From Elusimicrobia bacterium GWA2_51_34 (GTDB lineage: Bacteria > Elusimicrobiota > Elusimicrobia > Elusimicrobiales > UBA9959): DNA of 64,000 bases. The notes beneath the pieces are model-generated. The model saw nothing but the letters and a program-made list of their open reading frames with translations, was not told the origin of the DNA and did no database searches. Below are positions 41,854 to 63,396 of this stretch, piece after piece (the stretch's first letter is position 1; each line of letters begins with the position of its first letter). The position numbers were made by a program, and so were the translations under genes. The stretch spans positions 23,344 through 87,343 of the forward strand of contig MGTS01000018.1 of NCBI GenBank assembly GCA_001799565.1, given 5' to 3'.

Positions 41854-41862
41854 TCTGAAAGC

Positions 41863-41890
41863 AAAAAACCCGCAAAAGCGGGTTTTTTTC
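41863..41890. terminator. Bidirectional intrinsic-terminator-like hairpin
   Basis: aaaaaa-cccgc-aaaa-gcggg-ttttttt, with A/T runs on both sides. Confidence 0.75.
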
Positions 41891-41897
41891 AAAGCTT

Positions 41898-42045
41898 CGG
41901 AGAGGAAGGGATTCGGGCACAGCTCTTCGGTTCGCCGTCGCTCACCTCAGGCCGCGACCCCGGCTCGCGGTTTCACCTGTTGGTTCAACAACGCTCCGCC
42001 TTTCGAATCCCTACGCGAAGCAAGCAGTTGCTTCGCTTCCTCTCC
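41898..42045 (-). ncRNA. tRNA-Ser-framed structured RNA-like element (148 nt). Acceptor and T-stem arms copy the adjacent tRNA-Ser and enclose a conserved core.
   Basis: The 3' 18 nt are identical to the tRNA-Ser 3' end (C56 to G73). The 5' GGAGAGG equals the tRNA-Ser acceptor 5' strand. Hairpin gcgaagc-aactgctt-gcttcgc. The ~90-nt core aligns without gaps to 63166-63313. Confidence 0.6.
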
Positions 42046-42059
42046 TCAGCTTTAAAAGC

Positions 42060-42085
42060 AAAAACCCCGTTTTCACGGGGTTTTT
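42060..42085 (-). terminator. Intrinsic-terminator-like hairpin downstream of tRNA-Ser (bidirectional shape)
   Basis: aaaaa-ccccg-ttttca-cgggg-ttttt. Read on the minus strand it is followed by tttttgctttt. Confidence 0.7.
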
Positions 42086-42094
42086 AAAAAGCTT

Positions 42095-42184
42095 CGGAGA
42101 GGAAGGGATTCGAACCCTTGATACGAGTTTACCTCGTATGCCGGTTTAGCAAACCGGTGCCTTCAACCACTCGGCCACCTCTCC
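42095..42184 (-). tRNA. tRNA-Ser (anticodon GCU), class II with long variable arm
   Basis: Manual cloverleaf: GGAGAGG acceptor, D-arm GCC/GGC, anticodon loop UUGCUAA, variable arm CAUACGAGGUAAACUCGUAUC, T-arm AAGGG-UUCGAAU-CCCUU, discriminator G. CCA is not encoded. Confidence 0.93.
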
Positions 42185-42211
42185 ACTTTAAATCGTTATC
42201 CAATTTGAAGA

Positions 42212-42314
42212 CGAACCCTTGATACGGGTTTAGCAAACCGGTGCCTTTCCGCCACTACGACTTTGGCGGACCCGCCACCGCTGTAATGGCGGGCAACCAC
42301 TCGGCCACCTCTCC
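42212..42314 (-). pseudogene. Truncated tRNA-Ser(GCU) copy with a 47-nt twin-hairpin insertion in the D-loop. It lacks most of the variable arm and the 3' T-stem/acceptor strand.
   Basis: Matches tRNA-Ser from G1 through the D-arm, anticodon arm (same GCU loop) and AAGGGUUCG. The insertion at 42248-42294 folds as tccgcca-N9-tggcgga and cccgcca-N9-tggcggg. Confidence 0.75.
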
Positions 42315-42560
42315 CTTGGTCGCACCCTTCGTGCTACGCACTCCGGGCGATTAACGCCGGGCCTCAATAGGAAACCGGCCCGGTGCTCTACGAGGGGAGC
42401 TATGCTCCCCTTCGTCGTTCGCTCCGCCGCCTTTGGCGGCCCGCTCACTGTGACTCTGGCCTGTCGCGGGCCTCTGGCGCTGTCCGCGACTGAACCCTTT
42501 CTATATGGTACCCGCGCTCACTAACGAAGGTAATCGCGCGGGCTTATCTCTCACAGCCAC
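42315..42560. other. GC-rich tract made of serial 7-bp-stem hairpins (candidate structured RNA / repeat cluster)
   Basis: Read on the minus strand: cccgcgc...gcgcggg, gtcgcgg...ccgcgac, gccgcc-aaa-ggcggc, ggggagc-ata-gctcccc (extended), ccgggcc...ggcccgg. It includes the REP-like copy at 42460-42493. Confidence 0.4.
42460..42493. repeat. REP-like hairpin
   Basis: cctgtcgcgggcctctggcgctgtccgcgactga, with stem gtcgcgg/ccgcgac. Confidence 0.7.
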
Positions 42561-42715
42561 TTTAGGCGGAACTTGCCGGATACTTCTATAAGAGTATATC
42601 AAAAAATAAAAAAGGCTGCCTGAACTTGAAAGGAAATAAGCGATTGAGCCGGAGGCCGCCAAAGTAATAGAATTTATGCGGAACCGGCTGCGGCCGGTAT
42701 TGCGGCGCTCATGTA

Positions 42716-62583: not shown

Positions 62584-62678
62584 TATAAAGAAGAGATTAC
62601 GGTGATAGAGAAGCGATTACAGCGATAATAAGAAACTGCTCAGTCCCGCTTTGTCATTGCGAGCGGTAGCGAAGCAAT

Positions 62679-62713
62679 CTCAGTCGCGGACAGTCCGCCT
62701 AAGGCGGACTCGC
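62679..62713. repeat. REP-like hairpin, TCCGCC-TAA-GGCGGA variant (inverted relative to 52224-52257)
   Basis: ctcagtcgcggacagtccgcctaaggcggactcgc, preceded by gtcattgcgagcggtagcgaagcaatc. Confidence 0.6.
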
Positions 62714-62835
62714 AATAACACCCTGGGCAGTTACGATAATAAACAACCGAATCGACCAACCCGAACTTGTCACCCACGTCTATTCCTTAATCACTGTAAC
62801 CTACGCAGACTTTTTCAGTGCCCCTTTAAAATCTA

Positions 62836-63154
62836 TACCCCCATCAGGAATCGGCCACAGGTTCTCGGGCCGCCGTCGCGGCCCTCGCCCTTCGGCCACA
62901 GCTCGCGGTTTCGCCTGCTGGCCTGATTGCCTGAATTGTGTCCATAGCAGTCCTCTGGAAGCCCAGTCCACCCAACACCGCTCCGCTTTTCGATTCCTGA
63001 CGTGAAGACCGGCTTTAGAGCGAAACATAATTATGTTTCGCGTCCGGTCCGCAAGGGCGGAGGCGTCCACATCAGGCGAACGCCGAGCCGGGGTCGCGGA
63101 AAACCGCTATGCGGTTTATCCGTGACAGCCAAGCAGTTGGCTCGCTATGGGGCC
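62836..63154 (-). ncRNA. tRNA-Arg-framed structured RNA-like element, expanded and partly degenerate copy (319 nt)
   Basis: Has the same arm layout as 63166-63313. The core has a ~50-nt expansion, and ~120 extra nt lie between the T-stem 5' strand and the conserved hairpin. The acceptor 3' strand carries one substitution. Confidence 0.55.
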
Positions 63155-63165
63155 ATGAAAATTCA

Positions 63166-63313
63166 TGCCCCCATCAGGAATCGGTCACGGGTTCCCGGTT
63201 CGCCGACGCTCACCAGGCCCCGCGACCCCGCCTCGCGGTTTCGTCTGCTGACTCAACATCGCTCCGGCTTTCGATTCCTGACGCGAGACAAGCAGTTGTC
63301 TCGCTATGGGGCC
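63166..63313 (-). ncRNA. tRNA-Arg-framed structured RNA-like element (148 nt)
   Basis: The 3' 18 nt are identical to the tRNA-Arg 3' end (C56 to A73). The 5' GGCCCCA resembles the tRNA-Arg acceptor 5' strand. Hairpin gcgagac-aactgctt-gtctcgc. The core aligns without gaps to 41898-42045, and an 11-nt spacer atgaaaattca separates it from the tRNA. Confidence 0.6.
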
Positions 63314-63324
63314 ATGAAAATTCA

Positions 63325-63396
63325 TGCCCCCATCAGGAATCGAACCTGAATTACCTGCTTAGAAGGCAGGTGCTCTATCCATTGAGCTATGGGGGC
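63325..63396 (-). tRNA. tRNA-Arg (anticodon UCU)
   Basis: Manual cloverleaf: GCCCCCA acceptor, D-arm GCUC/GAGC, anticodon arm CCUGC-CUUCUAA-GCAGG, T-arm UCAGG-UUCGAUU-CCUGA, discriminator A. CCA is not encoded. Confidence 0.93.

Follow-up and report, generated by a model that had tools for sequence, protein, structure and literature searches.

The tRNA-trailer three-way-junction element, an undescribed family in Elusimicrobia and Patescibacteria (CPR)

Integrases that target tRNA genes use as attB the part of the gene that begins in the T loop and extends to the 3′ end. The units described here were analysed in a 64,000-nucleotide stretch of DNA from Elusimicrobia bacterium GWA2_51_34 (the window; contig MGTS01000018.1, positions 23,344 to 87,343) and in other genomes. 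They resemble attL/attR and CIME-type insertions in their site at the 3′ end of a tRNA, in the intact state of that tRNA, and in a direct repeat of its 3′ part, starting at the T loop, beyond the insert. As in tRNA-targeting islands, copies accrete in tandem, and the tRNAs concerned (Ser, Arg, Leu, Val, Met and others) are typical targets. Unlike attL/attR and CIME-type insertions, the insert is gene-less and measures 110–190 nt, its interior is a covarying, strand-specific structure shared across phyla, and the att segment is present not only as a repeat but also as its complement. The flanking direct repeat expected of a tRNA-targeting integrative element is present (19 loci), but the internal integrase is not.

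Folded recombination sites of the integron attC and CTX-phage attP kind are a second point of comparison, since they too are hairpins of ~100–150 nt formed by one strand, occur in arrays and, as at one locus of the present family (L121), can have a gene between copies. The units differ from attC in having no R and L boxes (R″/L″...L′/R′, GTTRRRY) and no integron integrase among the protein families listed for their surroundings. Their stems are locus-specific and equal to the target, and it is the loop that is conserved.

Among structured RNAs, the tRNA-like domain of tmRNA, the bacterial Y RNA YrlA and the stable RNAs C and D from the tRNA cluster of phage T4 are comparable in their acceptor/T-arm-like ends and in being encoded with tRNAs; the units, too, could plausibly make use of tRNA-processing enzymes. 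However, each of those RNAs has a fixed sequence in its genome and none copies the arms of a neighbouring tRNA, whereas the units lack a T loop, a D arm and an anticodon arm, and Rfam and ARAGORN are blind to them. The IS110 bridge RNA and the EBS/IBS pairing of group II introns likewise combine a conserved scaffold with a short, target-varying complement beside the insertion point; the units, in contrast, have no intron domains and no recombinase gene, and the partner of their ‘guide’ is a target copy in cis. The adjacent gene expected of a retron ncRNA, an IS110 bridge RNA or a TnpB/IscB guide RNA (reverse transcriptase, IS110 recombinase or TnpB/IscB) is not among the protein families listed for the neighbouring ORFs or the window.

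Finally, the units are short, protein-less, multicopy and hairpin-forming, as are SINEs, MITEs and REPINs, and would share with these a dependence on factors supplied in trans. SINEs keep a tRNA-derived head and retrotranspose, and MITEs and REPINs have conserved termini and variable interiors. The units, by contrast, have inverted termini that are locus-specific and an interior that is conserved, and their insertion is confined to tRNA 3′ ends (19 of 21 loci).

Units at the tRNA-Arg(UCU) and tRNA-Ser(GCU) genes

A search with the covariation model R1 found three unit copies in the window, every one at a tRNA. Two stand in tandem downstream of tRNA-Arg(UCU) (63325–63396, minus strand, as for all features below unless stated; ARAGORN, and Rfam tRNA with 75.3 bits), and the final 18 nt of this tRNA (C56–A73) recur at the 3′ end of both. 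An A/U-rich spacer of 11 nt, UGAAUUUUCAU (63314–63324), separates the tRNA from the first unit, A1, and the same 11 nt form a second spacer between A1 and the next unit, A2 (63155–63165); both spacers had been noted in a preliminary description of this DNA.

Unit A1 is 148 nt long (63166–63313; R1 score 111.6 bits). Its 5′ arm, GGCCCCAUAGC (63303–63313), agrees with tRNA positions 1–11 at 10 of 11 sites and pairs with the 3′ acceptor strand of A1. It is followed by the hairpin P2, GCGAGACAA/UUGUCUCGC, with the invariant loop region AACUGCUU (63283–63304; supported by pair counts), and by the 5′ strand of the closing helix PT, UCAGGAAUCG (63272–63281), which is the complement of tRNA-Arg 56–65 and, together with the following AA, of tRNA-Arg 54–65 (inverted repeat I3, 12/12). 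The conserved three-way-junction core (63184–63271), supported by RNAalifold, pair counts and R1, runs from J1 (GAAAG) through arm A, GG and arm B to a terminal GUGAC; arm A consists of P3–P6 with the purine loops GGA/GA and GA/GA, and arm B of four short helices. The unit closes with the 3′ arm, CGAUUCCUGAUGGGGGCA (63166–63183), an 18/18 direct repeat of tRNA-Arg C56–A73 that supplies the 3′ strand of both PT and the acceptor-like helix.

Unit A2, the third copy of the preliminary description, occupies 62836–63154 (~319 nt; R1 score 72.5 bits over 62849–62995). It retains the frame of A1, namely 5′ arm, P2, PT, core and 3′ arm, the last with one substitution (GGGGGUA), and adds two insertions, the first of which holds a partial unit in inverted orientation (R1 match at 63049–63131, plus strand).

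The remaining copy, unit S (41898–42045; 148 nt, R1 score 103.1 bits), has an A1-like architecture with tRNA-Ser arms. It lies behind tRNA-Ser(GCU) (42095–42184; ARAGORN and Rfam), from which it is separated by a spacer (42046–42094) in which an intrinsic-terminator-like hairpin, AAAAACCCCGUGAAAACGGGGUUUUU, can be read. A diverged homologue of this spacer is found behind unit S at ~41855–41897 (a 25-nt direct repeat and 25/40 identities beyond it). The window also contains a pseudo-tRNA-Ser with its break point in the T loop, and there are pseudo-tRNA fragments nearby.

Units A1 and S align without gaps over 148 nt, as the preliminary description had stated, with 104/148 identities overall, and its count of 70 identical positions among the 90 of the core was obtained again (unit positions 41–130). 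Each 3′ arm matches the end of its own tRNA (C56 to the discriminator) at 18/18 positions and that of the other tRNA at 7/18, in keeping with the earlier observation that identity to the tRNA is bounded at C56 in both loci. The claim that the arms are swapped according to the tRNA holds for these 3′ arms and for the 5′ arms (10/11 for Arg and 9/11 for Ser, each against its own tRNA positions 1–11), but the segment that had been called the T-stem 5′ strand is more accurately seen as complementary to tRNA 54–65; for Arg it is UCAGGAAUCGAA (12/12).

The spacer UGAAUUUUCAU is palindromic and therefore lengthens a possible hairpin between the acceptor 3′ strand of the tRNA and the 5′ arm of A1. Such a near-perfect local hairpin (tRNA 3′ end, spacer and 5′ arm) is what one might expect if the unit had a cis effect on the precursor of its tRNA: the 5′ strand, antisense to tRNA 54–72, could pair with either the upstream tRNA or the unit's own 3′ arm, and would serve as a switch of maturation or stability or as a sponge for 3′ fragments. 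In line with this, the unit is always close by in cis, and its 5′ strand is equally complementary to both partners, or, at locus L128, complements the tRNA better than its own 3′ arm. We nevertheless regard a cis function as improbable, because the arms at L107 and L120 match each other and no adjacent tRNA, sister species keep the same tRNA without a unit, and the conservation of the three-way-junction core would be left unexplained.

Searches of both loci against Rfam 15 (gathering thresholds and E ≤ 10) returned tRNAs and terminator-driven noise only. The units are not tRNAs (RF00005), as cmscan and ARAGORN call just the two real ones; compared with a tRNA, P2 takes the place of the D and anticodon arms and an insert of ~90 nt that of the T loop. 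No tmRNA was detected by ARAGORN, permuted forms included, or with the Rfam tmRNA families, and at E ≤ 10 there was no Rfam match to self-cleaving ribozymes (hammerhead, twister, twister-sister, pistol, hatchet, HDV-like or hairpin). Rfam also gave no match to Y RNA (YrlA), with no Ro/TROVE protein among the neighbour families listed, and none to HEARO or other Rfam guide-RNA families. Phage and plasmid sequences yielded no match with blastn, and pattern scans of IMG/VR gave chance matches only. A literature search found no description of such an element. The tRNA-trailer three-way-junction element is an undescribed family of Elusimicrobia and CPR bacteria.

Structure, strand and transcription context

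The structure of the unit is under selection. In the core, 95.9% of cells are paired, compared to 80.3% in shuffled alignments, and 15 of the 26 pairs carry double changes; the covariation score is 0.452 versus 0.157 in shuffles, a value reached by 0/500, and slid controls remained at or below 0.145. The covariation put forward in the preliminary description is therefore upheld by pair counting far above both kinds of control. RNAalifold detected compensatory changes in 18/30 pairs, and G-U pairs outnumber A-C pairs by 19 to 6.

The closing helix is 100% paired with covariation, and so is P2, for which GCGAGAC/GUCUCGC and GCGAAGC/GCUUCGC around the loop AACUGCUU had been reported; this hairpin is present in 9/9 Elusimicrobia-type units with three compensatory pairs. 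The 3-bp mini-hairpin ahead of GAAAC was likewise found in three copies as GUC/GAC, ACC/GGU and GCC/GGC. A further proposed hairpin, CCGCGA-N7-UCGCGG, had to be given up as a helix of the family: it shows 0 compensatory changes, is 75.8% paired, is disrupted in CPR-type units, and is in competition with two covarying helices. The acceptor helix is 79% paired, and its terminal pair 1-72 is disrupted in 6/9 Elusimicrobia-type units, which weakens the idea of tRNA-like end processing.

Three other candidate features were rejected. A kissing interaction of the P2 loop (CUGCU) with the tip of arm A (AGCAG) is unsupported, even though the two are complementary in most Elusimicrobia-type units, because L124, L145 and L121b alter one partner with no compensation. 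The sequence UGUUGA...GAAAC resembles the flanks of stem II of a hammerhead, but C3 and A6 are missing; these flanks form a continuous helix (GUU/AAC paired in 17/17 units), and the motif is gone in divergent members. The 5′ arm, as a general rule, is not a plain copy of the tRNA 5′ end: L072 has not the GGGCCUA of its tRNA but GGUCCA, which complements the 3′ strand and shows a wobble pattern of its own. The presence of the T-loop complement (AUUUG for CAAAU) also shows that the 5′ arm is not a sense copy.

The unit is predicted to fold on the tRNA-sense strand, where the computed structure is more stable than that of the antisense strand in 17/17 units, by a mean of 10.3 kcal/mol, and the folding z-scores are -7. 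From its position, the unit appears to lie within the transcription unit of the tRNA. Two units, at L126 (Tyr-unit-Ser) and L120 (Arg-unit-Lys), have a tRNA gene on either side, and terminator-like hairpins occur 3′ of at least nine units. The strand asymmetry and this context suggest that the unit is made as RNA. Against this, at five loci (the tRNA-Ser locus of the window, L124, L121, L072 and L107), a terminator-like hairpin lies between tRNA and unit with no space for a promoter, so that expression there would need read-through.

Distribution of the family, and its gain and loss

Pattern scans and the covariation model identified 24 copies of the element at 21 distinct loci, in Elusimicrobia and Patescibacteria (CPR). 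One genome-scan pattern was too loose, and ~105 of its 112 loci were chance matches; strict patterns, which caught only the subfamily with a conserved arm A, served for the public scans. At 19 of the 21 loci the unit comes immediately after a tRNA and has the same orientation. The relation between arms and adjacent tRNA that the preliminary description had set as a test for related genomes was found at these 19, in related and unrelated genomes, with 14 tRNA species represented (Arg UCU, CCG and UCG; Ser GCU, GGA, UGA and CGA; Val UAC and CAC; Met; Leu UAG and CAA; Tyr; Trp). At 19 loci the unit terminates in an exact repeat of 10–43 nt of its tRNA's 3′ end, which starts in the T loop.

A typical element is 130–150 nt long and whole inserts are ~110–190 nt, up to ~320 nt, with no ORF inside. 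In the closing helix, the 3′ strand directly repeats the tRNA, beginning in the T loop (C56 to U60) and continuing through the 3′ end, and the 5′ strand is the complement of this segment. The core of ~90 nt has the invariant junction strands GAA(A/C)G, GGAGC, GCGAG and GG(G/U)G, and variable arm tips. In the Elusimicrobia type, P2 interrupts the 5′ strand and the ends resemble an acceptor/T-arm rod. The 5′ strand is only partly complementary at L123. The repeat mostly ends 0–3 nt beyond the tRNA end and at several loci 7–50 nt beyond it, terminators included, and at L039 and L037 a CCA is present in the unit copy and absent from the tRNA gene copy. An unrelated ‘Y’ leader element was observed directly 5′ of the same tRNAs.

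We propose to define the family by its junction strands, by a closing-helix 3′ strand that repeats the upstream tRNA, and by a location on the same strand within ~90 nt downstream of that tRNA. Unit A1 shows all of these, with 111.6 bits in the R1 search, an 18/18 3′ arm, the same orientation as the tRNA and a gap of 11 nt to it.

Across the two phyla the cores are 64–99% identical, compensatory changes included. Cores that are 88–94% identical stand beside different tRNAs with wholly different acceptor arms, e.g. L069 (Val) and L121 (Met), which indicates that the arms turn over faster than the cargo. The occurrence of one architecture at 19 independent tRNA loci excludes chance, and covariation and recurrence support the earlier view of a modular cargo with locus-specific tRNA arms and either a selected structure or a tRNA-directed origin, rather than a random duplication. 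It would be extremely surprising if the units were functionless, as decayed tRNA duplicates or integration scars. Direct repeats of a tRNA 3′ end are indeed the usual scars of integration, and pseudo-tRNA fragments lie nearby, but a core conserved to 64–99% over two phyla with compensatory changes, and an architecture that is identical at 19 loci, are at odds with decay, which covariation and recurrence contradict.

The module has been gained, lost, tandemly duplicated, truncated and nested as a discrete piece. In three sister lineages, the orthologues of tRNA-Arg(UCU) have no unit and the same downstream gene lies ~55 nt away. At tRNA-Ser(GCU), the window has the full unit, L145 a divergent one and L144 a remnant of the 5′ arm, whereas the locus is empty in L146. 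Besides the tandem array in the window, there is a truncated extra copy in L069 and the inverted nested fragment in A2, and in L121, the sole locus with a gene between units, unit 1 is separated by a Fic/DOC gene from a tRNA-Met 3′ half with unit 2. One sister genome has integrase and excisionase genes beside the same tRNA-Arg. Excision was not seen at the Arg locus, which is identical in eight same-population assemblies, or at the Ser locus, where the spacing is constant across every assembly spanning it. The gene context in the window is housekeeping.

These data also bear on the possibility that the unit is an immobile chromosomal ncRNA gene for an ancient tRNA-like RNA, inherited vertically, with arms matched to the tRNA by local gene conversion and a patchy distribution due to loss. 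Strong purifying selection on the core in two phyla, the identical arrays in all eight assemblies of the species and the housekeeping context are consistent with such a gene, as is a 3′ arm that is 100% identical while the flanks past the tRNA diverge. However, a single core follows 14 tRNA species and its similarity does not follow tRNA identity, the unit is missing at orthologous tRNAs of close relatives with the flanking synteny intact, and tandem, truncated, inverted and orphan copies occur; moreover, gene conversion could not produce the complementary 5′ strand. We consider vertical descent of an ncRNA gene to be quite unlikely, and place it after the recombination-site explanation discussed below.

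Possible mechanism and significance

The reading that we favour, tentatively and at a likelihood approaching even, is that the units represent a new class of non-autonomous, protein-less structured RNA element specific for tRNA 3′ ends. Read-through from the tRNA promoter would make the unit RNA, and the tRNA-like closing helix would allow it to persist as, or be processed into, a stable RNA. As DNA, the element would insert non-autonomously by recombination over the T-loop-to-3′-end segment of the tRNA gene, with the moving enzyme acting in trans; such an insertion would leave the tRNA intact, and the displaced copy of its 3′ end would become the 3′ arm of the unit. The complementary 5′ strand, we propose, would be retained or rebuilt because the helix is required. 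A point against this mechanism is that a double-stranded circle of ~160 bp is an awkward recombination substrate. It is possible, though unlikely, that the units are a mobile entity of a new kind, a structured RNA without protein genes, putatively catalytic or a cofactor of an enzyme acting in trans, that is addressed to tRNA 3′ ends and rebuilds its closing helix at each insertion.

The units might instead be folded single-strand DNA recombination sites in the style of integron attC or the CTX-phage hairpin, i.e. gene-less cassettes, some with cargo, whose closing helix mimics the T-arm/acceptor duplex of the tRNA so that a tyrosine recombinase from elsewhere exchanges one strand. The stem sequence is that of the target duplex, folding is strand-specific, and the left end of the repeat is always in the T loop, reportedly a crossover sublocation of tRNA-targeting integrases, where the pseudo-tRNA-Ser of the window also breaks. 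Arrays and truncated copies, the cassette-like Fic/DOC arrangement at L121, and the integrase and excisionase beside the same tRNA-Arg in a sister genome would fit as well. On the other side, attC sites have a variable loop and conserved stem boxes, and here the situation is reversed, with the 90-nt ‘loop’ best conserved. This loop has covarying helices, G-U pairs and invariant purine-rich junctions, which are typical of RNA, and the repeat (18–43 nt) far exceeds the 6–8-nt overlap of a tyrosine recombinase.

The gene neighbourhood also speaks against this explanation. In a Pfam analysis of 81 neighbouring ORFs no family occurred in more than two, and the 25 commonest of the 83 matched families comprise neither an integrase nor a reverse transcriptase or transposase. 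The families listed for the 43 ORFs of the window likewise include no recurrent integrase, reverse transcriptase or transposase, and neither an IS110 recombinase nor TnpB/IscB was among those listed for neighbours and window. Taken with the structural evidence, a DNA recombination site appears distinctly unlikely.

The same survey is relevant to a retro-element or rolling-circle origin, in which a small, possibly circular RNA would be copied by a reverse transcriptase primed from the tRNA 3′ end and the resulting concatemers (tRNA-spacer-unit, with further spacer-unit repeats), ending at arbitrary points, would be fixed at the tRNA gene. Retroviral primer-binding sites use the last 18–21 nt of mature tRNA. 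The repeated segment corresponds to just this part, ends 0–3 nt past the tRNA in most loci and includes, at L039 and L037, a CCA that the tRNA gene lacks; in addition, the arrays of the window Arg locus, L069 and L144 can be read as n copies, and a fraction of another, of a circularly permuted unit. However, no reverse transcriptase is among the 25 commonest of the 83 neighbour families or among the window families listed, and several repeats run 7–50 nt past the tRNA with terminators, which is DNA or primary-transcript sequence. Since insertion between the discriminator and an encoded CCA would explain the CCA cases equally well, we give a retro-type origin little credence, as little as a cis function.

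Our preferred reading, a tRNA-3′-end-specific structured RNA element, has consequences for both annotation and biology. The family accounts for puzzling tRNA 3′-end repeats and long GC-rich trailers in metagenome-assembled genomes, and a covariance model is supplied for detecting the elements. If the units are RNA, they would constitute a new conserved structured class in the poorly understood and mostly uncultured CPR/Patescibacteria and Elusimicrobia, and a constant core framed by ends that copy the adjacent tRNA would be a design not seen before. If they are mobile, they would be the smallest tRNA-targeted insertion module known, and the question would be how a target-matched helix is regenerated without an element-borne gene, whether by recombinase targeting, RNA-guided insertion or tRNA-primed copying. 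A tRNA-addressed mobile RNA, if this is what the units are, would be a naturally reprogrammable tRNA-directed insertion module common to Elusimicrobia and CPR, and, given the ‘Y’ leader on the other side, the tRNA genes of these lineages would have dedicated RNA modules at both ends.

Layout and fold of the unit

The tRNA-Arg(UCU) gene (63325–63396, minus strand) is followed directly on its 3′ side by an 11-nt spacer, UGAAUUUUCAU, and then by unit A1 (148 nt, 63313 down to 63166). An identical copy of this spacer separates A1 from unit A2 (~319 nt, 63154 down to 62836), which has the frame of A1 plus two insertions. At the second locus, also on the minus strand, tRNA-Ser(GCU) (42095–42184) is followed by a terminator-like hairpin, unit S (148 nt, 42045 down to 41898) and a diverged second copy of the tRNA-Ser terminator. 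A1 and S align without gaps over their equal length of 148 nt, with 104 of 148 positions identical, and the core identity counted in the preliminary description, 70 of 90, was reproduced exactly (unit positions 41–130). The arms are cognate, as it had proposed: the final 18 nt of A1 and S match C56–N73 of their own tRNA at 18/18 positions, and of the other tRNA at 7/18.

From 5′ to 3′, the unit opens with an arm resembling the acceptor 5′ strand, followed by hairpin P2, with a 9-bp stem and an invariant loop region, AACUGCUU. Next come a block of 10–12 nt, the reverse complement of tRNA positions 54–65 (12/12 at the Arg locus), and the junction strand GAAAG. Arm A comprises helices P3 to P6, with a GGA/GA loop between P3 and P4, a 2-nt bulge between P4 and P5, a tandem GA/GA loop between P5 and P6, and a tetraloop capping P6. 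GG separates it from arm B, which has four short helices, and GUGAC leads to the final 18 nt, which repeat the tRNA 3′ end. As the reverse complement of positions 54–65, the block previously read as a T-stem 5′ strand belongs to a longer antisense block, which pairs with the T-loop and T-stem portion of the 3′ arm and lengthens the T stem by 5 bp.

Minus-strand RNA of the two 148-nt window units folds at –84.8 and –79.4 kcal/mol (z about –7), and plus-strand folds of the window units are ~13–18 kcal/mol worse. In 17/17 units the sense strand gives the more stable fold, by a mean of 10.3 kcal/mol. A three-way junction was predicted by RNAalifold, with compensatory changes at 18 of 30 pairs. In the core alignment, 95.9% of cells are paired compared to 80.3% in shuffles, double changes occur in 15 of 26 core pairs, and the covariation score is 0.452 compared to 0.157 when shuffled (0/500 shuffles reach it; slid-partner controls, ≤0.145). 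G-U pairs outnumber A-C pairs by 19 to 6. The nine units of the Elusimicrobia type, the form with hairpin P2, are 100% paired in the 9-bp closing helix and in P2, whose compensatory changes, noted earlier from the window, extend to three pairs. The acceptor-like helix is weaker (79% paired), its terminal pair being broken in 6 of the 9. The hairpin CCGCGA-N7-UCGCGG, earlier listed among the covarying elements, shows no covariation and is broken in units of the CPR (Patescibacteria) type. Comparison of all 24 members showed that the junction strands GAA(A/C)G, GGAGC, GCGAG and GG(G/U)G are invariant, and that both arm tips, including the UGUUGA...GAAAC motif, are swapped out in divergent members. 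The element is conserved, strand-specific and structured, with tRNA-specific closing arms. Selection acts on its structure as formed by the tRNA strand, which leaves the reading of the unit as a functionless scar with almost no probability.

Within 63010–63135, inside A2, the first insertion contains an inverted partial unit that weakly matches R1, the covariance model of the unit (18.4 bits); on the plus strand it reads GAGCCGGGGUCGCGG...CCGUGAC (63049–63131) and abuts the palindromic P2. The second insertion (~50 nt) interrupts arm A. Between A2 and a 268-aa gene lie ~250 nt (62590–62830, minus strand) with no counterpart in sister genomes, containing GC-rich hairpins such as GAGUCCGCCUUAGGCGGACU and GUCAUUGCGAGCGG...CCGCUCGCAAUGAC; neither R1 nor Rfam matched this stretch.

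Hosts and tRNA partners

A scan of the genome collection with the core pattern gave seven true matches and ~105 by chance, and a stricter metagenome scan gave 13 loci, 13/13 of them true. R1, built from 17 units, then picked up more divergent copies in the fetched DNA, bringing the family to 24 matches at 21 distinct loci. The hosts are Elusimicrobia, including the window organism, and the CPR groups Nomura-, Yanofsky-, Yonath- and Saccharibacteria. At 19 of the 21 loci the unit immediately follows the 3′ end of a same-strand tRNA, and these anchors are tRNA-Arg (UCU, CCG, UCG), Ser (GCU, GGA, UGA, CGA), Val (UAC, CAC), Met, Leu (UAG, CAA), Tyr and Trp. All 19 units close with an exact repeat, 10–43 nt long, of the 3′ end of their own tRNA. 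Elusimicrobia-type repeats start at C56 and CPR-type repeats at positions 57–61; at most loci the repeat ends 0–3 nt beyond the tRNA, and at some it extends through the spacer or a terminator. As exceptions, L120 (L-numbers denote loci from other genomes or metagenomes) carries an orphan unit with tRNA-like arms and no adjoining tRNA, and the two arms at L107 agree better with each other than with the neighbouring tRNA-Ser. The preliminary claim of a modular cargo with locus-specific tRNA arms, rather than a random duplication, is supported by this recurrence at 19 tRNA loci.

At L039 and L037, CCA follows the 3′ arm of the unit, and the upstream functional tRNA gene copy has none; either insertion separated the discriminator base from an encoded CCA, or a mature tRNA was the source of the arm. 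A LigT/2H-phosphoesterase gene (2′-5′ RNA ligase superfamily) adjoins a divergent unit at tRNA-Leu(CAA) on a Yonathbacteria contig (L122, 9739–10454), a single case that may be coincidence.

Directly adjoining the 5′ ends of tRNA genes is a second structured element, Y, likewise conserved and rich in GC (window 42320–42600, minus strand; L134 5440–5880; L144 2534–2800; L146 1943–2400; L124 ~1600–1771). It ends in ...GGAGCACCGG-hairpin-GGCGGyUAAUC-hairpin-GUGCGAC, followed by 4–5 nt and tRNA position 1, and has no Rfam match; in sister Elusimicrobia, two to three tandem copies precede tRNA-Arg and tRNA-Ser. Y, tRNA and unit occur together in the window, L124 and L144.

Gain, loss and rearrangement

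In the window, ~750 nt separate tRNA-Arg from the 268-aa gene downstream. Its orthologues in three sister Elusimicrobia (76%, 68% and 56% identity) lie ~55 nt downstream of the same tRNA-Arg(UCU), with no unit. At the Ser locus, around Sua5, the window has a full unit, L145 a divergent unit with both arm tips replaced (38.6 bits), L144 only the spacer and a 10-nt 5′ arm, and L146 no unit; in a relative with 93% Sua5 identity the entire tRNA cluster is absent from that position. The window species itself is fixed at the Arg locus, where eight assemblies share one sequence, and Ser-locus spacing is equal in all assemblies. The unit is confined to tRNA 3′ ends and is present or absent as a whole. 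Arrays terminate in a fraction of a further unit, as at L069 (3′ arm, spacer, 5′ arm and half of P2), and a degenerate spacer and arm start lie 3′ of A2. L121 (10540–12850) has a cassette-like order: tRNA-Met, terminator, unit 1, a Fic/DOC (DUF4172) gene with a small ORF, the tRNA-Met 3′ half from the anticodon loop, terminator and a divergent unit 2. A C/U variant at tRNA position 65 is swapped crosswise there between the two tRNA copies and the two unit arms.

Core similarity is independent of tRNA identity (Val and Met units, 94%; Arg and Val, 88%), so that exchange of the arms outpaces divergence of the core. A non-mobile non-coding RNA whose copies undergo concerted evolution would be an unlikely account of this pattern of exchange and whole-unit presence or absence.

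The region upstream of tRNA-Arg(UCU) differs in every relative, with DnaB_C/Lactamase_B_2 in L130 and an ADP-ribosyl-toxin-like gene in L134, and with this variability it resembles a hotspot for islands. One sister genome has genes for a tyrosine recombinase (Phage_integrase, 214 aa) and an HTH_17 excisionase-like protein immediately upstream of its unit-less tRNA-Arg(UCU) (L132 4319–5829; L133 3545–4189). In the window, a pseudo-tRNA-Ser (42210–42314, minus strand) fused to Y lies 24 nt (42186–42209) upstream of the real tRNA-Ser. It comprises tRNA-Ser positions 1–57 with a 45-nt D-loop insertion and the variable arm deleted, and ends in the T loop (GGGUUCG|), the breakpoint at which the 3′ arm of the unit begins. 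This breakpoint supports T-loop recombination activity in this lineage.

Origin and classification

The unit would be transcribed with its tRNA, because it lies on the same strand, two units occur between tRNA genes (L126, L120) and terminators stand 3′ of the unit; it probably functions as an RNA. A terminator separates tRNA and unit at five loci, which, together with the poorly conserved acceptor-helix end, counts against a simple model of processing like a tRNA. A cis-acting switch on the tRNA precursor seems very unlikely.

The repeats have a left edge fixed in the T loop, match perfectly over the tRNA part, and give way to flanks that are diverged but homologous. We infer that this is what recombination across the tRNA-gene 3′ segment would leave: a small element carrying its own copy of that segment would generate the observed repeats. 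Integrative elements that target tRNA genes produce such 3′-segment repeats. The best explanation, a tentative one, is composite: in it, the unit would be a tRNA-read-through RNA that has spread as a non-autonomous tRNA 3′-end insertion module. In Pfam scans, 81 ORFs flanking 15 loci and 43 ORFs of the window corresponded to housekeeping genes, with no family common to more than two of the 81, and no integrase, reverse transcriptase or transposase was found among the 25 commonest of the 83 Pfam families matched in each ORF scan. An origin by tRNA-primed retrotransposition or rolling-circle replication is given little credence.

Like integrative elements and CIMEs, the unit repeats the tRNA 3′ end and accretes in tandem; like attC and CTX attP sites, it has a hairpin formed by one folded strand. 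Its tRNA-like ends are also seen in tmRNA, Y RNA and the T4 stable RNAs, and it resembles MITEs, REPINs and SINEs in being small and dependent on trans factors. In each case, however, a defining feature is missing. A single-strand DNA recombination site, to which the likeness to attC and attP would point, is rated a rather unlikely alternative to the read-through module. Rfam 15 gave nothing over the units even at E ≤ 10, ARAGORN did not call them, phage and plasmid records and IMG/VR held no match, and literature searches turned up no account of such an element. None of the families tested combines a conserved junction core with locus-specific helix arms that equal the adjacent tRNA, and no other family is known to do so. 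The unit is best filed as a new class.
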